From positions 10,274,009 to 10,306,758 of the forward strand of contig NC_057718.1 in the NCBI RefSeq assembly GCF_004010195.1: 32,750 nucleotides of DNA. The letters run 5' to 3'. Both the position numbers and the translations under genes were made by a program. Source of the DNA: Chiloscyllium plagiosum (taxonomy: Eukaryota). Positions 194 through 28,439 of this stretch are shown piece after piece (the first letter of the stretch is position 1; the number at the start of each line of letters is the position of its first letter). Below the pieces are notes generated by a model, which was not told the DNA's origin, made no database searches, and was given only the letters and a program-made list of their open reading frames with translations.

Positions 194-362
194 GAGGAGA
201 AAGTGAGGTCTGCAGATGCTGGAGATCAAAGTTGAAACTTCATTGCTGGAACAGCACAGCAGGTCAGGAATTCCTGAAGAAGGGCCTGTGCCCGAAACGT
301 CGAATCTCCTGTTTCCTGGATGCTGCCTGACCTGCTGTGCTGTTCCAGCAATAAAGTTTCAA
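194..362. mobile_element. PLE pLTR-derived inverted-repeat element with one hammerhead motif
   Basis: Arms gttgaaact..ttgctggaacagcacagcaggtcagg / cctgacctgctgtgctgttccagcaa..agtttcaac. 11-bp TSD caattcacctc at 183-193 and 363-373. Confidence 0.85.
274..301 (+). ncRNA. Minimal type I hammerhead ribozyme motif (intact core)
   Basis: CUGAAGA-A-GGGC(CUGU)GCCC-GAAA-CG-UC. Stem I attc/gaat. Palindromic ACGU stem III. Confidence 0.8.
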
Positions 363-2217: not shown

Positions 2218-3310
2218 TTACGGAGTTTTTTTTAACCTTTTGACATACTTTTAGTTTGGCGTTAAGTTTGATATAACTAGCAAACATTATAAAATTGAAA
2301 AGGATTGATCTGAAAACACTGAGTCCTCCAAGGAGTCTAACCTGAGAAGTAAACCTACCTTTTCCACTTCTACAGATTGACAGATCTTTGTATTTTTAAT
2401 ATTGCTTACTTTGTTCCTCCTCTTTATTTTCCTTGCTCCTGACATTTTAAATCTGGTTTTAAAAAAACCTGCTTCAGTGCAGAATTGAAAACGGCACTGA
2501 CCTAAAATTAAAATGTGTCTGGTATGTTTGGATGCTGGTGAGCAGGCATTTTACTGTGTGCAAGGAGCTGATCTCAATCTGCCTGGCCAGAGTACAATGG
2601 GGAGCCAGCAGTTTAACTTGAGTCTGCAAATGCTTAATTGCTCCTTCCTTACTCTATATCCTTTGATGCCAAATCATGATTTAAAAAATTATGAATCACA
2701 ATCTTAATGTGACCCCCAGCATCATTTGGTCAAGACAATTCCTGCATTCTAACAGCCTTTGAATGAAGAAGTATTTTGTGGTGATCTGAACTTCATTTAC
2801 ATTCTTTCCTTTCATTTACACACCAAGTGGGTAATGGCTTCACTCTATTTACCTGAGTAAAACCTTTAGTAATTGAAGCACCTCAATTAGATCATGCATT
2901 ACTCCTCTGGATTAAAGGGAGTGCAAATCAGGTTTATGTAAATCACCCTCAAAATAACCTTTGAAATCCCCTTAGCATCGAACTAGTGAAGATGCATTGG
3001 AACCACATTGCACTGAGAGAAGTCTTTTCTCCTGAAGATCGGTATCTAACAGAATTACTTCTGCTTTACACGACACCCTGCCTTAGAACAAGCTGTCAGA
3101 AGAAAATCTCACAGTATGCTGTCATCCTGAAATGGCGGAGAAAGATATTAAACCACCAATTCCCCAAGGCTTTACGTTTTCATATTGGCAATTACTGTAG
3201 CTCACAACTGGATTAATGCCCTATGATTTAACAGTTCTTGCATTCTCATAATTGCCCATGAAGAAAACTTGAGGGTGCCTTCTTGTGGTGCATTAGACTA
3301 GTAGACCACA

Positions 3311-4110
3311 TCAGGAGCACCTGATGCAATAAACTAAGTTGGAACAGAGCAGGTGAACCTCTGTCTCACCTGGAAGGACTGTTTGGGGCTCTGGATGGAG
3401 GTGAGGGGGGGTGTACTGGCAGGTTTTGCATTTTTTCTGGTTGCAGAGGAAGGTACCTGGGGGTTCGGTGGTGGGGATGGCGTGAACTAAGGACTGGAGA
3501 AGGCAGCGGTCCTTGTGGTTGGCTGAGAGGTGTGGATGTTCTTGGTGGTGGGGTCTATTTGGAGTTGGCAGCAATGTTTGAGGATGGTGTGTTGGATGCA
3601 GAGACTGGTGGGGTGGTAGGGAAGGACGAAGGGTCTCTGTCCTTATTGCTTTGGGAGGGAGGAGGATTTAGAGTGATGGAATGGGGAATGGTGCTGGTGC
3701 AGAGGAGGGTTGTCTAGGTGACGGAGGGAGGAAAAGCGCGTTGCTCAAAATAGGTGGACATCTGGAATGTTCGTGAGTGGAATGTCTCCTCGTCTGAGCA
3801 GATGCAGCGGAGGCGCAGGAATTGGGAGAATGGGATAGAGTGTTTGCAGGATACTGGGTGGGAGGAAGTGTAGTCCAGGTAGTTATGGGAGTCTGTAGTT
3901 TTGTAGTAGATGTCTGTTAGATGTAAATGGTGAAATCGAAAAAGGGGAGGGAGGTGTCCAAAGTGAGGTAAGTTAACTTGAAGGCAGGGTGGAAGTTATG
4001 GGTGAAGTCGATGAACTGCTCCAGGTCAGCCTGGGTGCAGGACGCTGCGCCGATGCTGAAGAGTTGGTGTACAGTGCCTGTGTAGGTGCTGAAGAGGGAC
4101 TGTTCAATAT
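3311..4110 (-). mobile_element. Penelope-like element fragment (RT C-terminus plus start of GIY-YIG endonuclease), pseudogenised
   Basis: Translated PGTFLCNQKKCKTCQY and SNLVYCIRCS (PLE zinc-binding linker and GIY-YIG start). Upstream ctacaaaactacagactcccataactacctggactacacttcctcccac encodes YKxTDSHNYLDYTSSH. Confidence 0.88.
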
Positions 4111-4325
4111 AGCCCCTAAGATGTTAGAATGGCAGTTCTATGCTTTAAATCTTGCGAGAGGGAAGGGATGGCAATATCTCCAGCCAAGTGGGACTAATTC
4201 AGTTTAAGAAACCTGGTCAGCATAAGTGAGATGGGCCCATGGGCCTGTTTCCATGCTGTGTGAAGCTATCCCTCTGGGTGGAGGGGAATGTATAGGTGGT
4301 GGTGTTCCCATGTATCTGTTATGAT

Positions 4326-4651
4326 GATTAGATTAGATTCCCTACAGAATGGAAATAGGCCGCTCGGCCCAATAATCCATACCGACCCTCCGAAGAGCAA
4401 TCCACCCAGACACATTCCCCTACATTAACCCCTGACTAATGCACCTTACACTACGGGCCATTTTAGCATGGTCAATTCACCTGACTTGCACAGCTTTGGA
4501 CTGTGGGAGGAAAACGGAGCACCTGGAGGAAACCCACGCAGACACGGGGAGAATGTGCAAACTCCACATAGACAGTTGCCCGAGGGAGGAATTGAACCCA
4601 GGTCTCTGCTGCTGTGAGGCAGCAGTGCTAACCACTGAGCCACCGTGCCAC
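4326..4651 (-). mobile_element. HE1-type V-SINE, full length, present only in copy A
   Basis: ggcacggtggctcagtggttagcac head, V-domain and (aatct)n tail. Absent at the homologous site near 7625. Confidence 0.92.
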
Positions 4652-4659
4652 CCCAATAT

Positions 4660-5360
4660 AGTCATTCATCATGGAAATAGGCCCTTCAGCCCATCTAGTT
4701 TATACCTACCAGATTTCCCAAACTGAACTAGTTCCATTTGCCTGTGTTTGATCCCTCTAAACCTTTCCTATCCATGTGCCTGTCCAAGTATCTTTTAAAA
4801 GTTGTAACTGTGCCTGCATCTACCACTTCCTCTGGCAATTCATTCCATATACACATCACTGTTTATGTGTAAAAGTTGGCCATCAGGACCCTTTTATATC
4901 TTTCCCCTCTTTTCATAAACTTACGTCCTTAGTTTTGAACACTCCTGCCCTGAGGAAAAGACCTTGTCTACTCACCCTGTCCATGCCCCTCTGATTTTAT
5001 AAACCCCAATAAGGTCACCCCTCAGCCTCCACCGCTCCAGGGATAAAAGTCCCAGCTTCTCTACTTAACTCAAACCCTCCAAACCCAGTAACATTCATGT
5101 AAATATTTTCTGCATCCTTTCCAATTTAATAATATCCTTCTTATAGCACGGCAATCAGAATTAAAAAGAGTACTTCAAAAGTGGCCTCCCCTGTACAGCT
5201 GCAACAAGACATCCCAACTCCTGCACTCAATGCTCTGACCAATGAAGGCAAGTATGGCAAAAACCTTCTTAACCAGCCTGTTTACCCCTGATTACACTTT
5301 CTAGGAACTATGTATCTGCACCCCTAGATCTCTCTGTTCGGTAACACTCCTCAGGGCCTG
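4660..5360 (-). mobile_element. CR1/HER1-type LINE 3' fragment
   Basis: Degraded RT C-terminus and 3' tail ...gggctgaagggcctatttccatg. Confidence 0.85.
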
Positions 5361-5977
5361 AGCTGTGTCCTTCCAGGTAATTACAAAAGTAATTTCTATC
5401 TAACTTTTCACACTTAGGTATTCTAAAAAAGCAATGCGATTAAGCAAGGTTACATGAAAAGCTCCAAGACAGTTTTTTTTTATTTAATGTGTCTGATCAT
5501 TTACTCTTCTGTTATCACACACAAGGCCCAATTATGGACTCAATGCAGCTGCCTTCCCCTATAAATAAATATTGCACAAATTCTGTTTCAAGGGAAACAA
5601 AACTTTAAACAGCTTCCTGTCGAGTGAAACTGACAGCACTAACGTATTCCTTTTACTATTTCAGGGTGGTGACTAAATATAATGTTTATTCTAAATATAT
5701 GCCTAATGGCCAACACTTGCTCTCTGCCACATATCCTGACCATTGACCATAACTTATAGCAGCTGTCTCTGTCCTCCCGCACTCTTTGATAACACAATTA
5801 GGGGAAATGGTGGTACAATGGTAATGTCACAGCACCAGTGTGATCCAGAGGGTCACTCTCTGCCAACATGGGCTCTCATCTCACCATGCCATTGGTGAAA
5901 CTTAAATGCAATTATTACCTCTGGATTACAAAGCCACCGTCTGTGACGGTGACCACAATTGATTATCATAAGATGGA

Positions 5978-6198
5978 GCTGGAAATGTGTTGCTGGAAAA
6001 GCGCAGCAGGTCAGGCAGCATCCAGGGAACAGGAGAATCGACGTTTTGGGCATAAGCCCTTCTTCAGGAATGATTCCTGAAGAAGGGCTTATGCCCGAAA
6101 CGTCGATTCTCCTGTTCCCTGGATGCTGCCTGACCTGCTGCGCTTTTCCAGCAACACATTTCCAGCCCTGATCTCCAGCATCTGCAGACCTCACTTTC
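5978..6198. mobile_element. PLE pLTR palindrome with HHR motifs on both arms
   Basis: ~93-bp near-perfect inverted arms centred near 6072. 15-bp TSD ttatcataagatgga at 5963-5977 and 6199-6213. Empty site in copy A'. Confidence 0.92.
6077..6104 (+). ncRNA. Minimal type I hammerhead ribozyme motif (intact core)
   Basis: CUGAAGA-A-GGGC(UUAU)GCCC-GAAA-CG-UC. The mirror copy on the minus strand (6040-6067) has GAAA>AAAA. Confidence 0.8.
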
Positions 6199-6242
6199 TT
6201 ATCATAAGATGGAATCTGGTTCACTGATATCCTTTAAGGAAG

Positions 6243-6466
6243 CTGAAAAATGTGTTGCTGGAAAAGCGCACCAGGTCAGGCAGCATCCAAGGAGCAGGAG
6301 AATCGACATTTCGGGCATAAGCCCTTCTTCAGGAATAATGCCCGTTCGGGGCTTATGCCCAAAACGTCGATTCTCCTGCTCCTTGGATGCTGCCTGACCT
6401 GCTGCGCTTTTCCAGCAACACATTTTTCAGCTCTGATCTCCAGCATCTGCAGTCCTCACTTTCTCC
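6243..6466. mobile_element. PLE pLTR palindrome; HHR motif on minus strand at 6305-6332
   Basis: Inverted arms. 15-bp TSD tatccttta(a/g)ggaag at 6228-6242 and 6467-6481. Empty site in copy A'. Confidence 0.9.
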
Positions 6467-6749
6467 TATCCTTTAGGGAAGGCGATCTGCCATCCTTACC
6501 TGGTCTGGCCTACTTGTGAATCCAAACCCACAGCAATGTGGTTGACTCTTAAATGCCCTCTGTAATGGCCTGAGCGAGCTATTTAGCTTAAGGGCAATTA
6601 GAATTGGGCATCAAATATTAACCTTCCTGATCCTGCTCATATTGTCACAGCTCACTGGGATAATATGCTGCACATCACATCCCATGATTCATAGAGTCAT
6701 CACAATTGTGGGGGTTTGATTATACACAAAATTGCCCAATTTTACCTTT

Positions 6750-6880
6750 ATCTGCAGCTCCCCACACACCCACCTCTAGTCCTGAAGAAGGGTTATATCT
6801 GAAATGTCCACTTCGATTAGATTAGATTCCTTACAGTCTGGGAACAGGCCATTTGGCCCAACCAGTCCACACCGACCCTC
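6750..6880. mobile_element. PLE 3' fragment with degenerate HHR (+, ~6782-6808) followed by a V-SINE/CR1 tail (-)
   Basis: cctgaagaagggttatatctgaaatgtc, then gattagattagattcc..aacaggccatttggcccaa. Confidence 0.6.
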
Positions 6881-6881
6881 A

Positions 6882-7158
6882 ATGGTAGAGTTCACGTTTT
6901 TGCAATTTTCACTTGAAAGAGTCTTGACGAGTTGCTACAGTTCATCTTGTAGGTGGTACACTAAGTCAACGATGGACTGATTGTTTAAGGTGGTGGATGG
7001 GGTGAAGATCAGATGACTGTTTTGTTCTGGTGCTGGGCTCCATGAGTGTTGTTCATGTTGCATTCACTCAAACAAATGTCTATAACTATTTATCACTGTT
7101 CCTTCATTGTTTCTGGGACAAATATTCCAGAACTTTCTCCCTAGCAGCACAGTAGGAA
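6882..7158 (-). repeat. Inverted copy of 9556-9852
   Basis: Reverse complement matches ttcctactgtgctgctagggagaaagttctggaat...gtgaaaattgcaaaaacatgaactc, including the same internal chimeric junction. Confidence 0.88.
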
Positions 7159-9253
7159 GTCCAAGTAGTTATGGGAGTCTGTAGGTTTGGAGTAGATGTC
7201 TGTTGGATGCAAATGGTGAAATCGAGAATGAGGAGGGAGGTGTCCAAGATGAGATAAGTGAATTTGAGGGTGGGGTGGAAGTTGTGGGCGAAGTCGATGA
7301 ACTGCTCGAGTTCAGCCTGGATGCAGGACGCTGCGCCGATGCAGTCATCAGTGTCACAGCTGACGATTTGGCATACAGTGTCTGTGTAGGTGCTGAAGAG
7401 GACTGTTCAATCTCGCCCCTAAGATGTTAGAATGGCAATTCTATGCTTTTAATCTTGTGAGAGAGAAGGGATGGTAATATCTCCAGGCAAGTGGGATTAG
7501 TTCAGTTTGAGAAACCTGGTCAGTATGAATGAGATGGGCCGCAGGGCCTGTTTCCATGCTGTATGATGCTATCCCTCTGGGTGGAGGGGAACATGTAGGT
7601 TGTGGTATTCCCACGTATCTGCTATCGTAGAGTCATTCATCATGGAACCAGGCCCTTCAGCCCATCTAGTTTATACCTACTAGGTTTCCCAAACTGAACT
7701 AGTCCCATTTGCCTGTGTTTCACCCATATCCCTCTAAACCTTTCCTATCCATGTACCTGTCCAAATATCTTTTAAAAGTTGTAACTGTGCCTGCATCTAT
7801 CGCTTCCTCTGGCAATTCATTCCATACACGCACTATTATTTGTGTGTAAAAGTTGGCCATCAGGACCCTTTTATGTCTTTCCCCTCTCTTCTTAAACTTA
7901 CGTCCTTAGTTTTGAACACTCCTGCCCTGAGGAAAAGACCTTGTCTATTCACCCTGTCCATGCCTCTCTGATTTTATAAATCCTAATAAGGTCACCCATC
8001 AGCCTCCACCGCTCCAGGGATAAAGGTCCCAGCCTATCCAGCCTTTCTTTTTAACTCAAACTCTCCAAACCCAGTAACATTCTTGAAAATCTTTTCTGCA
8101 TCCTTTCCAATTTGATAATATGTGTCTTATAGCATGGAGATCAGATTTGAAAACAGTACTCCAAAAGTGGCCTCTCCTGTACAGCTGCAACAAGATTTCC
8201 CAACTCCTGTACTCACTGCTCTGACCAATGAAGGCAAGTATGCCAAAAACCTTCTTCATCGGCCTGTCTACCTCTGATGCCACTTTCTATGAACTTTGTA
8301 TCTGCACTCTTAGATCTCTCTGTTCGGTAACACTCCTCAGGGCCTGACCTGTGTCCTTCCAGTTAATTACAAAAGTAATTTCTATCTAACTCTTCACACT
8401 TAGGTATTTTAAAAAAGCAATGCAATTAAGCAAGGTTACATGAAAAGCTCGAAGACAGTCTTTTTTATTTAATGTGTCTGATCATTTACTCTTCCATTAT
8501 CACACCCAGCGCCCAATTATGGGCCCAATGCAGCTGCCTTCCCCTATAAATAAATATTGCACAAATTCTGTTTCGAGGGAAACAAAACTTTAAGCAGCTT
8601 CCTGTTGAGTGAAACTGACAGCACTAACGTATTCCTTTTACTATTTGAGGATGGTGACTAAATATAATGTTTATTCTAAATATATGCCTAATGGCCAACA
8701 CTTGCTCTCTGCCACATATCCTGACCATTGACCATAACTTATAGCAGCTGTTTCTGTCCTCCCGCACCCTTTGATAACACAATTAGGGGAAATGGTGGTA
8801 CAATGGTAATGTCACTCTCTGTGATCCAGAGGGTCACTCTCTGCCAACATGGGCTCTCATCTCACCATGCCATTGGTGAAACTTAAATGCAATTATTACC
8901 TCTGGATTACAAAGTCACCGTCTGTGACAGTGACCACAATTGATTATCATAAGATGGAATCTGGTTCACTGATATCCTTTAGGGAAGGCGATCTGCCATC
9001 CTTACCTGGTCTGGCCTACATGTGAATCCAAACCCACAGCAATGTAGTTGACTCTTAAATGCCCTCTGTAATGGCCTGAGTGAGCCATTTAGCTCAAGGG
9101 CAATTAGGGATGGGCACCAAATGTTAACCTTTCTGATCCTGCTCATATTGTCACAGCTCACTGGGATAATATGCTGCACATCACATCCCATGATTTATAG
9201 AGTCATCACAATTGTGGGGGTTTGATTATACACAAGATTGCCCACTTTTACCT
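7155..9253 (+). repeat. Tandem segmental duplication, copy A' (PLE fragment, CR1 fragment 7630-8345 on minus strand, SINE 8786-9140)
   Basis: Collinear with 3864-6747, with scattered substitutions and small indels. Confidence 0.92.
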
Positions 9254-9499
9254 AATTCTGGTGAAAATAATATGCACTTCAGGTGGTTTTTTTTCCATTA
9301 ACTCCAAAAAATAACTTCTTATTGGAATCAAACTGCTTTTAGGATTGCCAATAAAAAGACAAGTTGAATTGTTAATCTATAACTCTATAACTTACATTCT
9401 ACCCTTTTTGAAGACCTCCAAGCACGTGTTATGTGAATGGAAGTTGTTCAATTCCAGTTGCTTGTTCTCGTGGCCTCATTTATTTCCCATCCATAATTA

Positions 9500-10135
9500 C
9501 TATTGAGAAAGTGGTGGTTATCTGCCACTTTGAGCTGCTGCATGATGTGTAAATATTCCTACTGTGCTGCTAGGGAGAAAGTTCTGGAATTTTTATCCCA
9601 GCAACAGTGAACGAACAGCGATAAAGTTCCATAATAGTTGTAGACATTTGTTTGAGTGAATGCAACACGAACAACACTCATGAAGCCCAGCACAGAATAA
9701 AACAGTCCTCTGATCCTCACCCCATCCACCACCTTAAACAATCACTCCATCGTTGACAATTAGTACGACAGTGTGTACCACCTACAAGATGAACTGTAGC
9801 AACTCATCAAGACTCTTATAAGTGAAAATTGCAAAAACATGAACTCAACCATCTAGAAGGGCAAGATGTGCAGATACACATGAGCCACAAAGTTACCACC
9901 ACCAGCATGTTCCCCTCCAAGTCACTCACCATCCTGAATTGAAAATATACTGCCATTCTTCAGAGTCGCTGGGCCAAAATCCTGGAACTCCTTCCCTAAG
10001 AGTACTGAGGGAGTGCCTGCATCATGTGGCCTGTAGCACTTCAAGAAAGCAGCACCTCAAAGGCATTGAGAGATGGGCCACAAATGTTGGCCTAGTCAGC
10101 GATGCGCAGATGCTGTGAATGGATGTTTCAAAAAT
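9500..10135. mobile_element. Old non-LTR retrotransposon 3' end (L2/CR1 group), two opposed pieces
   Basis: gtgtaccacctacaagatgaactgtagc..aaaatcctggaactccttccct..agggcaattagggatgggc-like tail. Related copies at 14560-14971 and 28440-28780. Confidence 0.7.
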
Positions 10136-10797
10136 GGCACTAAACTATTTGTGAAATATCATCCCTGTTCAGACTTATTGAACCTGCAGAATACAATGCA
10201 ATCAATTCACTGAACTGACAATCATAGACTCTGACCACTCTGCAGAGGCTGTGAGTTGCAAATGCAATATGTTGAAATGAGCTGGCAAAGACGGAATGCC
10301 ATAAAGGATTTGTTCTTCTGTTCTCATATATCATTATTATGGCATTGGAATGAAAGAGCCATTATTTATTATCAGTCAGTTCCCAACAGATGTGGCCTAA
10401 CAAGGTACAGTTCTCATACATACTGTCAGACACCACAATCCAAGCCAGTTACATTGCCACAAATTGTATACAGTGACATTAGCAAAGATTCAATTATTCT
10501 GGACTGAGAGGAGGAAAGCTTTCTTCATACAAAGGGTTGTGAAACAGTAAAATTCACGACTCCTGGGAACTGTAGATATTACATTATTGATCACATCCAA
10601 GGCTGGAGTGGAGTGATTTTTGACTTCCCAACGGATCAAGGGATATGTGGATTGGACAGTCAAATGGAGAAAAAGCCAATGATTATTCATGACCTTAACG
10701 ATGGGCAAAGCAAGATGGATGGACGAATGGTCTACTTCTACTCCAGTTCTTTATCTAGTAATTAAAGACATCTAAGATTGGACTTAAAGGAACAATT

Positions 10798-11023
10798 AGG
10801 AGATAGTGAGGACTACAAATGCTGGAGAAGTCAGAGTCGATAAAGTGTGGTGTTGGAAAAAGCACAGCGGATCAGGCAGCATCTGAGGAGCAAGAGAGTC
10901 AACATTTCGGATGTAACTCTTCCCCAGTCCTGATGAAGGGTTACACCCGAAACATTGACTCTCTTGCTCCTCAGATGCTGCCTGACCTGCTGTGCTTTTT
11001 CCAGTGCCACACTTAATCGACTT
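10798..11023. mobile_element. PLE pLTR palindrome (third variant) with HHR at 10930-10956 (+)
   Basis: Inverted arms. CUGAUGA-A-GGGU(UAC)ACCC-GAAA-CA-UU, stem I agtc/gact. Approximate TSD ttaaagg(a/g)aca(a/g)tt at 10784-10797 and 11024-11037. Confidence 0.85.
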
Positions 11024-20750: not shown

Positions 20751-20881
20751 CATTCCTGTTGAAGGGCTTATGTCCGAAATGTTGATTCACCTGCTCCTCG
20801 GATGCTGCCTGACCGGCAGTGCTTTTTCAGCGCCACACAGTCGACTCTGATCTCCGGCATCTGCAATCCTCACTTTCTCCT
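20751..20881 (+). mobile_element. Single PLE pLTR 3' terminus with degenerate HHR
   Basis: attcctgttgaagggcttatgtccgaaatgttga...gcatctgcaatcctcactttctcc. Possible TSD ta(a/g)ttgca. Confidence 0.75.
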
Positions 20882-21260
20882 AGTTGCATCTTCATACAGA
20901 TTTTGGTCGTGTTCTTGCTCTTGAAAACTTGTGAGAGTGAAATCCAGCTTTCTCAATGATCTCAAGGTCAGGCATTCATTGAGGTTGGTCCTCTCCCTAT
21001 TTCCTGACATGAAACATTATTCAACCAGGGATGATATATTCAGGTCCATATTCAGGTGTCATACAACACCTTACACTTTGCTGGTATCAGTGAAGTAGCT
21101 AACAAATCATTCAGACGTGTTGATAGTGTTATGAAGCTGTAAAGTGAACTGTACCTTTAAGTAGTCATGATTCGGAGATGCCGGTGTTGGACTGGGGTGT
21201 ACAAAGTTAAAAATCACACAACACCAGGTTATAGTCCAACAGGTTTAATTGGAAGCACAT

Positions 21261-21289
21261 TAGCTTTCGGAGCGATGCTCCTTCATCAG
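21261..21289 (-). ncRNA. Minimal hammerhead motif (intact core, stem I mismatch)
   Basis: Minus strand reads cac-CUGAUGA-A-GGAGC(AUC)GCUCC-GAAA-GC-UA-aug. Confidence 0.65.
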
Positions 21290-21309
21290 GTGATGAAGGT
21301 AACAATCAC

Positions 21310-21338
21310 CTGATGAAGGAGCGTCGCTCCGAAAGCTA
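21310..21338 (+). ncRNA. Minimal type I hammerhead ribozyme motif (intact)
   Basis: cac-CUGAUGA-A-GGAGC(GUC)GCUCC-GAAA-GC-UA-gug. Palindromic AGCU stem III, stem I cac/gug. Confidence 0.82.
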
Positions 21339-21463
21339 GTGTGCTTCCAATTAAACCTGTTGGACGATAACCTGGTGTGGTGTGATTTTTAACTTTGTAC
21401 CTTTAAGAGAGTTGAAGGACTTAGCAAGGACACAGAGTGCTGAAGAATTTAAAATGTAACACT

Positions 21464-23598: not shown

Positions 23599-24613
23599 TG
23601 TCATTCACAAGGTGAGGAGGTTAAGGACACTTTAGTTATTGAAGGATGTTGACAAGGTGGTTAAAGAATCTCTCTGCCTTTTGATAGGACAGACCCATAA
23701 ATGAATGATGCAACAAATCCAAAAATGTGTGGGAACAAGAGGCAGTTATTTAGCTCCTTGAACCTTTTCTGACATTCAATGAGATCGATGCGATCATCAC
23801 TGAGAAATCACCACTTTCCCTATATCGCTCAACGCCTTCACTAACAAAAACCTACCTCAGAGTTCAAATTAACAACTGATCCAGTATCATTGGATTTGCA
23901 GAAGAGAGTTCCGAACTACAGTGTGTGTGTGAAAATATTCCCCAACATCATTTCTAAAAGCTTGACTCTGATCTGTGTCACTGCATCCTAAACTCCAAGT
24001 GGAGTTGACACCCGGATAAGATCAGCAATGATCATGTTAAATAGCGTAGTGAGCTCGAAGGACTAAATTAGCTAATTTCATTCCTATTCTTGTACACACT
24101 TCACAAACTCCACCCCATCCAAACCCTTAACACTATGACAGTCCCAGTCTATGTTTGAAAAGTTAAAATCTCCCACCATTACAACAGGCCATTCGGCCCT
24201 TCAGGTGTATGCCGATGCATTTTGCCCTTCCATAAGACAACTGTCTTCACTTATAGGATCTGTGTCCTTCTATTCCCTTGCTATTCATATATATGTCCAG
24301 GAGCTTCTTGAATGCTTGCTTCTAACTTTGAAAAGGGAATTGGATAGATACCAGGAAAGGAGAGAATCTGCATTGTCATGGGGAAGGGGCACGGAGTGGT
24401 ACTCATTGAAAATTTCTTTCAATCAGCCAGCACAGATAGCATGAACTGAAAAGTCATCTCCTGTTTTATATGGAGTTCCAATATTAAGATGGACAATCAG
24501 AATTGTACAGTACAGAAGATGCCCTTTTTTTATTTACTGCCATAAAGACACTACTACCTACACTTGTCCCATTTTCCAACACTAGGCCCGTGGCCTGGTA
24601 TGACATTTCAAGT

Positions 24614-24975
24614 AGGGTGAGGTGGGGGAAGGGGAAATGAGGAAACTGTTGAAGTCCACATTGATGCCCTGGGGTTTGTCCGGACTCAGGACTTTCCCCA
24701 TGACTTGTCCGGACTTGTCCTACCTGCCTATCTCCTTTTCCACCTATCCACTCCACCCTCTCCTCCCTGACCTATCACCTTCATCCGCTCCCCCACTCAC
24801 CCATTGTACTCTATGCTACTTTCTCCCCACCCTCACCCTCCTCTAGCTTATCTCTCCACGCTCCAGGCTCACTGCCTTTATTCCTGATGAAGGGCTTTTG
24901 CCCGAAACGTCGATTTCAAAGCTCCTTGGATCCTGCCTGAACTGCTGTGCTCTTCCAGCATCACTAATCCAGAAA
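24614..24975 (+). mobile_element. 5'-inverted PLE 3' end with intact HHR, inserted in an old CR1 tail
   Basis: Inverted ORF-end piece (minus strand QGINVDFNSFLISP), C-rich 3' UTR and pLTR. 14-bp TSD atgacatttcaagt at 24600-24613 and 24976-24989. Confidence 0.88.
24884..24911 (+). ncRNA. Minimal type I hammerhead ribozyme motif (intact core) in native PLE context
   Basis: CUGAUGA-A-GGGC(UUUU)GCCC-GAAA-CG-UC. Confidence 0.8.
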
Positions 24976-25231
24976 ATGACATTTCAAGTGCTCATCCAAG
25001 TTCCTTTAAAAGTTGTGAAGTTTCCTGTCTCAACTACCCTCCCAGACAATGCATTTCAGATCCTCTGGAGCAAATTACTTTTCCTCAAATGCCCTCAAAA
25101 CCTCCTGCCTTTCACTTTATAAGTGTGCCCCCTCGTCCTTGACCCTCTGACTAAGTGTAACAATGGTTTTCTGTGTCCCTCATAATCTTATACCTCTCAA
25201 TCAGATTCCCCACCTTAACCTTCTCTACTTC

Positions 25232-25625
25232 AAGGTCAGAAGTCACATGACACAAGGTTACAGTCCAACAGGCTTACTTGAAATCACGAGTTTTCGGAGC
25301 GCTGCTCCTTTGTCAGGTAAAGTGAAGAAAAGCAAACAGGCACAAAATGTATAGGCATTGAGATCAAAAAATCATACAAATTCTGTGAGTGGAGTGTCTG
25401 TAGGCTGAATAATAGGTCTCTGCAGGTGATCAAAATTGTCAGACAGTGTGAGTAAAGTCTCAACAGCTGAATAACAAGTGAAGGGATATAATCCAATTAA
25501 ATGAGGCAGACAGATATTTACAAAAAATTAAAACTAAAATGGTGCTGGAGACAAACCAAACGGCTGGAATAACGTAATAGGTATAAAAGTCATATGCCGA
25601 GGGTCTAACCAAAGTAGCAAGTAAT
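25232..25625 (-). mobile_element. PLE 3' region (second family) with degenerate HHR
   Basis: Minus strand cctgacaaaggagcagcgctccgaaaactcgtg...ctgttggactgtaacct. Confidence 0.75.
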
Positions 25626-26609: not shown

Positions 26610-27155
26610 TTTTTGGATGTCCCAATGAAGTAATTTATGAAGTGGAGTCCTTGTTAAAATCTACAAAATGTGGCAACCCATTTGCACACAGCAAGTTCCC
26701 ACAGACAGCATTGAAATAAGTACTCAATCATTCAATTTAGGAGCTGAAAATGTGTTGCTGGAAAAGCGCAGCAGGTCAGGCAGCATCCAAGGAGCAGGTT
26801 TCAGGCATGAGCCTTTCTTCAGGAATGAGGAATGAGGACACTCTCCTAATTCCTGAAGACGGGCTCATGCCCGAAACATCGAATCTCCTGCTCCTTGGAT
26901 GCTGCCTGACCTGCTGCGCTTTTCCAGCAACACATTTTCAGCTCTGATCTCCAGCATCTGCAGACCTCACTTTTTCCCATTCAATTTAGGAGTCAATTTG
27001 ACTGATAAAGATTGGCCAATATATCAGAGACAACAATGAACAATCTCTTTGAAATGTTGCTGTGGGATCTCCTTCAGTTCAGGTAATGAATTTCCAGCTA
27101 AGGTGGAAGCTACAGGTTTTTAAGGACAGGAGTGCAAGTAATGGACAGCACTTTG
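26610..27155 (-). mobile_element. Old DeuSINE remnant hosting a PLE palindrome
   Basis: tttgcacacagcaagttcccacagacagca..gataaagattggcca..gctgtgggatct..ggacagcact. Confidence 0.6.
26744..26977. mobile_element. PLE pLTR palindrome with HHR (+, ~26853-26880)
   Basis: CUGAAGA-C-GGGC(UCAU)GCCC-GAAA-CA-UC, stem I attc/gaat. 15-bp TSD cattcaatttaggag at 26729-26743 and 26978-26992. Confidence 0.9.
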
Positions 27156-27240
27156 TAGGAGCAAATTACTGCGGATGTGGGAAACTGGACTAAACAAAAA
27201 AAAATGCTGGAATTCACAGTGAGTCAGGCAGCATGGAGAG

Positions 27241-28201
27241 TGCTATACATTTACTATAAACCAACCGACTCCCACAGCTATCTAGACTACACCTCCTCCC
27301 ACCCTGCCCCCTGTAAAAACGCCATCCCATATTCCCAATTCCTTCGTCTCCACCGCATCTGCTCTCAGGAGGACCAGTTCCAATATCGTACAACCCAGAT
27401 GGCCTCCTTCTTCAAAGACCACAATTTCCCCCCAGACGTGATCGACGATGCCCTCCACCGCATCTCTTCCACTTCCCGCTCCTCCGCCTTTGAGCCCCGC
27501 CCCTCCAATCGCCACCAGGACAGAACCCCACTGGCCCTCACCTACCACCCCACNNNNNNNNNNNNNNNNNNNNNNNNNNNNNNNNNNNNNNNNNNNNNNN
27601 NNNNNNNNNNNNNNNNNNNNNNNNNNNNNNNNNNNNNNNNNNNNNNNNNNNNNNNNNNNNNNNNNNNNNNNNNNNNNNNNNNNNNNNNNNNNNNNNNNNN
27701 NNNNNNNNNNNNNNNNNNNNNNNNNNNNNNNNNNNNNNNNNNNNNNNNNNNNNNNNNNNNNNNNNNNNNNNNNNNNNNNNNNNNNNNNNNNNNNNNNNNN
27801 NNNNNNNNNNNNNNNNNNNNNNNNNNNNNNNNNNNNNNNNNNNNNNNNNNNNNNNNNNNNNNNNNNNNNNNNNNNNNNNNNNNNNNNNNNNNNNNNNNNN
27901 NNNNNNNNNNNNNNNNNNNNNNNNNNNNNNNNNNNNNNNNNNNNNNTCCTAACCTGCAATCTTCTTCCTGACCTCTCCGCCCCCACCCCCACTCCGGCCT
28001 ATCACCCTCACCTTGACCTCCTTCCACCTATCGCATTTCCAACGCCCCTCCCCCAAGTCCCTCCTCCCTACCTTTTATCTTAGCCTGCTGTGCACACTTT
28101 CCTCATTCCTGAAAAAGGGCTCATGCCCGAAACATCGATTCTCCTGATCCTTGGATGCTGCCTGACCTGCTGCGCTCTTCCAGCAACACATTTTCAGCAC
28201 T
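27241..28201 (+). mobile_element. Young 5'-truncated Penelope-like element (RT C-terminus, gap, 3' UTR, pLTR with CUGAAAA-variant HHR near 28109-28136)
   Basis: YYKPTDSHSYLDYTSSHPAPCKNAIPYSQFLRLHRICS..PLALTYHP. pLTR matches the palindrome arms. Candidate TSD catggagag at 27232-27240 and 28202-28210. Confidence 0.92.
27554..27946. other. Assembly gap (393 N)
   Basis: Run of n. Confidence 0.99.
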
Positions 28202-28220
28202 CATGGAGAGACAGCAAGCT

Positions 28221-28251
28221 AATGTTTCGAGTCTAGATGACCGTTCATCAG
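28221..28251 (-). ncRNA. Degenerate hammerhead motif of a fourth PLE family (host element ~27157-27240 and ~28202-28320, minus strand)
   Basis: agct-CUGAUGA-A-cgGUC(AUCUA)GACuc-GAAA-CA-UU-agct. 4-bp stem I. Confidence 0.6.
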
Positions 28252-28439
28252 AGCTGATGGGAAGTGTGGAGGGGCCAACATTTATGGAGAAGGGGGAAGG
28301 GATGGTGTTGACAAGCTCTGACACACTGCCTTCCTGATCAAATAGAGTTCATTTTGCATGAGAAAGTAATTTTCATTTTGTAATCTTTCTTTCAGTTGAT
28401 TTCATTCTCTTTTAAAACAGAATTACTACATCCACAAGT

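Follow-up and report, generated by a model that had tools for sequence, protein, structure and literature searches.

The window analysed here, a repeat-rich 32,750-nt stretch of the Chiloscyllium plagiosum genome (NC_057718.1, positions 10,274,009 to 10,306,758), contains six short palindromes, A to F, which are very probably products of Penelope-like elements (PLEs) assembled separately at each insertion event. Two of them, B and C, had been picked out by a sequence-only reading as TSD-flanked units at 5978-6198 and 6243-6466 that lie 14 bp apart and are absent from a duplicate, and arms, TSDs and empty site were all recovered. The 94-nt arms of B (5978-6071 and 6073-6166) are 99% complementary with 1 base between them, and its RNA fold is predicted at -200.4 kcal/mol against -67.5 for shuffles (z -27; 0 of 200 shuffles equal). 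Palindrome C has complementary arms of 84 nt (6241-6324 and 6349-6432; 96%). The TSD of B (5963-5977 and 6199-6213) is 15 bp and exact, and that of C (6228-6242 and 6467-6481) is 15 bp with 1 mismatch. Because 1-5 bases per junction match target and element alike, both TSDs are to be read as 14-15 bp, so that of the 15 bp originally given for each the duplications themselves stand but the exact length does not. The region is laid out as follows.

5963 to 5977, plus strand: left TSD of B, 15 bp, the last 2 nt also matching the element end
5978 to 6071, minus strand: inverted pLTR arm of B, outer end tailless; hammerhead core GAAA changed to AAAA
6072, no strand: centre of B, the single base G
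6073 to 6166, plus strand: direct pLTR arm of B; minimal hammerhead motif at 6077-6104
6167 to 6198, plus strand: PLE tail of B, 32-33 nt
6199 to 6213, plus strand: right TSD of B
6214 to 6227, no strand: host DNA between the TSDs of B and C, 14 bp
6228 to 6242, plus strand: left TSD of C, 14-15 bp, one mismatch; the empty site agrees with the right copy
6243 to 6336, minus strand: inverted pLTR arm of C; hammerhead motif at 6305-6332
6337 to 6348, no strand: centre filler of C, 12 nt assembled from short copies of the adjoining arms
6349 to 6432, plus strand: direct arm of C, starting 12 nt downstream of the inverted arm's start and without the CUGA core
6433 to 6466, plus strand: tail of C
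6467 to 6481, plus strand: right TSD of C
8944 to 8987, plus strand: empty paralogous site, each target once with the same 14 bp between

The empty site belongs to a local duplicate in which 4657-5977 corresponds to 7628-8958 (86 differences in 1314 columns) and 6467-6747 to 8973-9253 (14 differences in 281), a divergence of 5-6.5%. The duplicate carries each target singly (8944-8958 and 8973-8987) without either palindrome, and B and C are thus insertions younger than the duplication. In the public contig sets, a contig from another sample of one organism represents the empty duplicate, since it carries the paralog's variants; contigs of two further organisms depart from the reference at the left TSD edge of B (5962 and 5959), with 33 and 53 letters unplaced, as would be the case at an empty site. 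For six elements at random positions, the chance of two lying as near each other as B and C do (14 bp) is ~3%, which is not remarkable among the many windows scanned. The stretch 3872-4322 is also duplicated, at 7158-7625, and the local duplication thus includes PLE sequence.

The four further palindromes that had been reported at the following coordinates were likewise found, each with a TSD.

194 to 362, minus strand: palindrome A, TSD 10-11 bp; tailed arm without ~56 nt of the inverted arm
10798 to 11023, minus strand: palindrome D, diverged subfamily, TSD 14 bp with 2 mismatches; tailed arm without ~9 nt of the inverted arm
21162 to 21395, minus strand: palindrome E, second PLE family, TSD 12 bp and exact; hammerhead descriptor matched by both arms
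26744 to 26977, plus strand: palindrome F, TSD 15 bp; centre a 7-nt stutter plus upstream PLE sequence

From A to F the TSDs measure 11, 15, 15, 14, 12 and 15 bp; as a chance control, an exact 11-mer or longer was shared by 0.15% of 2,000 random flank pairs. A few bases short of the 3' end, each of the six TSDs has an AT-rich core (TTTA, TTAA, ATAA or AATT); this would agree with reports that the PLE endonuclease prefers to cut at AT-rich sites. The architecture ascribed to all six, with one overhanging arm and a spacer that differs each time, was seen in every copy, but the one at 21162 comes from a second PLE family, and the overhang measures 32-42 nt rather than the ~25-35 nt first estimated.

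By sequence, the palindrome arm is the terminal repeat (pLTR) of an endonuclease-bearing (EN+) PLE. The assignment made beforehand was borne out by the pLTR shared with an ORF-bearing copy (I), by relatives of that copy with RVT_1 and GIY-YIG, and by hammerhead motifs. Two neighbouring insertions are of particular use.

27241 to 28201, plus strand: copy I, a 5'-truncated PLE with an ORF fragment at 27249-27554, pLTR at 28105-28198, tailless, 9-bp TSD
24614 to 24975, plus strand: copy H, a PLE insertion with a 14-bp TSD and a 5' inversion of the twin-priming type; inverted ORF end at 24614-24680, then a direct part to the tailless pLTR end

The pLTR of copy I shows 4-11 differences from the arms of B, C and F, and its ORF fragment, compared over 27240-27551, is 75-81% identical to Chiloscyllium punctatum proteins and 64% identical to a Rhincodon typus protein, which most likely indicates a carpet shark. 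A Pfam search of the fragment itself gave no domain match, RVT_1 and GIY-YIG being seen via its relatives. The link between ORF fragment and pLTR spans a 393-N gap, and a single 9-bp TSD brackets both. The hammerhead-bearing end (pLTR) into which copy I is inserted lies on the minus strand and comes from a third PLE family (27158-28260). An open frame runs through the tail in B and F; 0 of 9 relatives start with that frame, so no ORF start is claimed. The arm patterns had no match in metagenome or viral contigs.

Other PLE remains are scattered through the window. Solo direct stubs of both families, at 20752-20882, 1727-1849 and 25231-25318, start at the hammerhead edge, two of them tailed and one tailless; for the solo copies G, J and K, the TSDs are no better than expected by chance. 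Another subfamily has left decayed PLE ORF fragments on the minus strand at 3278-4114 and 7156-7403. A further hammerhead-bearing PLE end (6782-6808) is interrupted by a SINE-like repeat, presumably HE1-like (6782-6880), which recurs at 28, 1382, 4329, 12660, 16127 and 23280. An inverted repeat at 7484-7715 (88 nt, 82%) is a palindrome of a different kind, from LINE sequence that we take to be CR1-like.

A minimal-hammerhead descriptor gave 9 matches in the window, whereas 100 simulated sequences averaged 0.03; palindrome arms account for 7 of the 9. An Rfam search of the window returned no hammerhead; its 8 matches were all to microRNA-precursor models, below gathering scores, and are due to the long hairpins. 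The term ribozyme, as initially applied to these units, is therefore kept for the sequence motif that the descriptor matches but not beyond it. The two motifs of a palindrome lie on opposite strands, core bases are lost in one arm of B and in one arm of C, and the motif would be buried in the 94-bp hairpin predicted for a transcript across B; the fold of a single arm is no more stable than that of shuffled sequence (z 0.0, -0.9, 0.0 and -1.9). One published monomeric minimal hammerhead failed to cleave (PMC4209133), and ribozyme activity within the predicted palindrome hairpin appears unlikely. The arms span the hammerhead cut site, indicating an uncleaved template.

The palindromes had been proposed as a distinct kind of product. 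In substance the architecture is already known, the ORF here being simply absent: a direct pLTR with a shorter inverted pLTR, a 31-bp tail and a TSD is the typical Penelope structure (Arkhipova et al. 2013, PMC3846280), the same structure was described by Craig et al. (2021, PMC8557442), who called the mechanism undefined, and opposite-strand hammerhead pairs 100-700 bp apart were tied to truncated PLEs in Schistosoma (Cervera and de la Pena 2014, PMC4209133). Published EN+ PLE units share with the shark palindromes a shorter inverted pLTR, a one-sided tail (30-40 nt in the published units), a variable TSD and a pLTR hammerhead (PMC3846280, PMC8557442). They differ in that the shark units have no ORF between the arms and belong to a family on the order of 100,000 arms (for an assumed genome size), and rotifer PLE TSDs are 8-10 bp, against 11-15 bp here. 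The shark motif resembles metazoan PLE minimal hammerheads in its CUGANGA core, unpaired base before helix II, GAAA, palindromic 15.2-16.2 and short helix I, and differs in a helix II of 4-5 bp (PMC4209133). In the text covered of that work, sharks are absent and TSDs and centres are not analysed. Inverted pLTRs and extensions also figure in a curation guide (PMC8969392), and siRNAs from Penelope inverted repeats have been reported (PMC3681739). The covered text of PMC3846280 and PMC8557442 describes no ORF-less PLE palindrome as such, a 2018 Repbase review has no passage on PLE palindromes, and no paper on ORF-less PLE palindromes in sharks was found in a search whose coverage excluded most subscription papers.

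Non-LTR retrozymes (bioRxiv 10.64898/2026.07.22.740005) are likewise ORF-less and pLTR-related with a type I hammerhead, but form head-to-tail tandems with two same-strand hammerheads. A retrozyme identity was rejected, since every unit in the window is head-to-head or solo and no head-to-tail tandem with same-strand hammerheads occurs.

Some features of the palindromes are fixed and others are particular to each copy. Exactly one end is tailed in all six, with a tail of 32-42 nt; one TSD brackets both arms, no TSD occurs at the centre, and both arms always belong to the same subfamily, an inverted, 5'-truncated pLTR adjoining a direct one. The palindrome form is present in four families or subfamilies. 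In the five family-1 palindromes the outer end of the short arm falls at the same alignment position, within 1-2 ambiguous bases, which is also the 3' end of the ORF-bearing direct copy I. The short arm therefore ends at a genuine second 3' end of the element, and the overhang beyond it, judged on sequence, is the tail already known from PLEs. The inner ends lie close together, immediately 5' of the hammerhead core: in A, B, C and D the inverted arm stops within 2 nt of the A in ATTCC or AGTCC and in F 5 nt upstream, while the direct arms start at that A in B, ~10 nt upstream of it in F, and ~9, 12 and 56 nt downstream in D, C and A, respectively. The inverted arm exceeds the tailed arm in three of the six (A, C and D), by about 56, 12 and 9 nt. 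The centres differ in all six, and in C, E and F they include short stretches copied from the adjoining arms. Arms differ less within a copy (1 in 94 for B, 3 in 83 for C, 3 in 74 for F) than between copies (7-10 for B versus C).

Whether one master predominates was addressed with public data aligned to 5750-6700 at 90% likeness, consisting of one raw run (about 4% of it read) and three contig sets. Among 121,903 raw reads, 120,890 fitted partially and 1,013 (0.8%) ran unbroken across B or C; depth was 41-142 on the filler of C and 8,000-11,000 on the adjoining arms. With the genome size taken, as an assumption of ours, to be 3-5 Gb, the summed arm depth of ~69,000 corresponds to ~107,000-180,000 arms at at least 90% identity, and the unbroken reads to an upper bound of ~3,000-5,500 copies with a B- or C-like centre. 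The data contained 1,831 joints and 800 filler rows. Among the 15 joints listed, 12 connect the inverted to the direct arm at varied points, the inverted arm reaching further 5' in 7 and the direct arm being longer in 5; in 5 of those 7 the sequence resumes within about 12 nt of the tail start, giving an inverted pLTR with little beyond the tail. Taken singly these listed joints are weak, most coming from one contig and 7 of the 15 having intervening sequence recorded as not known. A separate joint leads from 6467 back to 6433 and represents a tandem double tail; it occurs in 59 raw reads, with 46 starts between them, and in contigs of each of the three other runs, and fits re-priming between two start sites.

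With six differing centres, TSDs of 11-15 bp and unbroken alignment in just 1,013 of 121,903 reads, there is no dominant master, and the proposal of assembly per event was thereby upheld: its suggested tabulation of spacers and TSD lengths, applied to the six palindromes, showed neither identical spacers nor a fixed TSD. Palindrome centres can be remodelled after insertion, so unique spacers are not the sufficient sign of de novo origin they had been taken for. The label non-autonomous is also dropped, as it implies onward mobility and no sign of such mobility was found.

How a palindrome might arise in a single event is suggested by its two fixed outer ends. At a slightly better than even chance, in our estimate, both target nicks prime cDNA, starting at two sites separated by the length of the tail, and end-joining unites the resulting cDNAs. 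Each palindrome would then be one abortive insertion of a Penelope-like retrotransposon encoding RT and GIY-YIG. The endonuclease would cut an AT-rich target with an 11-15 nt stagger, the length observed in the TSDs; one target 3' end would prime a cDNA at the tail tip, and the other would start a second one 32-42 nt upstream, where pLTR and tail meet, using either that RNA or a sister molecule. Double priming is what we infer from end points that are fixed in the copies themselves. Host end-joining would fuse the two cDNA ends through microhomology, with loss on either side or with templated filler, the pathway being read from the anatomy of the junctions. The product would be a dead-on-arrival unit of inverted pLTR, pLTR and tail.

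That the second target strand can prime is apparently shown by copy H, in which an inverted ORF-end piece is followed by the direct continuation of the same RNA, with ~27 nt missing and no overlap between the pieces; its junction (24600-24989) contains short templated repeats. In the twin priming of L1 that Ostertag and Kazazian reportedly described in 2001, the second target strand primes internally, and a single TSD comes to enclose an inverted 5' piece. Copy H is arranged in this way. The L1 pieces are said not to overlap, whereas the arms of the shark palindromes copy the same segment from fixed starts.

The clustering of inner ends coincides with an initiator-like motif, accompanied in copy I by an AT-rich box ~30 nt upstream, and suggests run-off at the 5' end of the RNA. 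Against run-off at that very point, the arms of F reach 5-10 nt past it and most reads continue upstream; there are 16,521 loose ends there (agreement 0.71), from which most reads run on into upstream PLE sequence.

The strongest competing explanation, which is the one originally offered and which we regard as unlikely though not negligible, is fold-back. Here a cDNA begun at the tail tip would halt near the hammerhead, snap back or switch to its own strand and be copied back to the pLTR/tail boundary, ended there by the endonuclease or a block, and the centres would later be remodelled by hairpin or cruciform repair. The near-perfect palindrome B with its 1-nt centre is what such a process should leave, as are private variants common to both arms of a copy, and the tail has been ascribed to endonuclease-mediated resolution of an intermediate (PMC8557442). 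The 5 of 12 listed joints with a longer direct arm are compatible with fold-back too. Later hairpin breakage is expected to give fillers and central deletions, which we count in favour of fold-back. Against it, the inverted arms of A, C and D contain sequence that is missing from the tailed arm and that copying of the tailed cDNA could not provide; fold-back then needs a separate later deletion in three of six copies, always on the tailed side. The ~56-nt loss in A, bounded by a 5-nt direct repeat, could be such a later deletion. Moreover, the tailless direct copies I, H and K use the boundary without any inverted pLTR, and copy H points to second-strand priming. Fold-back thus fits worse, and the two-primer route, as judged from the six palindromes examined in full, is favoured over fold-back followed by central deletion.

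It is improbable that the B-like subset with near-zero spacers is a true hairpin retro-element, one or a few masters of which were copied whole by PLE proteins. The 1,013 unbroken reads, with their upper bound of ~3,000-5,500 B- or C-like centres at 3-5 Gb, and 54 reads from 35 starts that share a 3-nt-shorter centre like that of A would be expected of such a hairpin, but unbroken reads are just 0.8% of 121,903, the variants of B are minority alleles (the consensus base occurs in 82% of reads at 5982 and 95% at 6167), the filler of C is near-unique, and all four families or subfamilies carry the palindrome form. Repeated pairs of run-off cDNAs would yield the same centres, recurrent centres being also expected from run-off to a fixed RNA end. 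More improbable still is a head-to-head meeting of two separate PLE stubs at one site, or a palindrome made later by repair from a solo stub: a single TSD surrounds both arms with none at the centre, the arms are always of one subfamily and one end is always tailless, even though insertion of one PLE end into another does occur here (copy I in the pLTR of the third family) and B and C landed 14 bp apart. A DNA-transposon MITE with long terminal inverted repeats, to which the short, ORF-less, palindromic, TSD-flanked and high-copy units bear a resemblance, is refuted with a negligible residual probability by variable TSDs of 11-15 bp in place of fixed short ones, by inverted repeats that are not terminal (a tail overhangs one end in 6 of 6), by an arm that is the pLTR of an RT/GIY-YIG element and also occurs in solo direct copies, and by internal sequence that is not shared (6 of 6 centres differ; 0.8% of reads unbroken).

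Biochemical work on the Poseidon element of Anolis carolinensis (Frangieh et al. 2024, PMC11167929) accords with the priming of both target strands: in vitro the anole PLE protein cuts and extends both strands, uses two internal starts one tail apart and accepts uncleaved RNA, with AT-rich targets. In that study the start site was equal between strands, so the anole data leave the one-sided tail unexplained, and the text covered neither traces inverted pLTR units to dual priming nor settles the later steps. Tentatively, and with somewhat less than even confidence, we propose a PLE-specific dual-primed integration in which two programmed sites on the pLTR RNA, offset by the tail, would be used, followed by run-off at the initiator just 5' of the hammerhead and by end-joining. 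No published model of dual priming in PLEs was found in the literature searched, subscription papers being outside its coverage.

The origin of the inverted pLTR and one-sided tail of PLEs has been stated as unresolved (PMC8557442, PMC11167929), and the chief value of the palindromes is as natural evidence on PLE insertion. As short units that hold both junctions, the centre and the TSD in 250 bp, at very high copy, they make the question testable by counting. If the proposal is true, dual priming would explain the inverted pLTR and the one-sided tail across the PLE class without self-priming, and shark genomes would offer tens of thousands of natural test junctions. At the assumed genome size there are ~100,000 or more arms, forming near-perfect hairpins with a MITE-like look and sub-threshold microRNA-precursor matches, so that the mislabelling as MITEs foreseen in the sequence-only reading is plausible, and shark repeat and small-RNA annotation should treat the palindromes as PLE debris.
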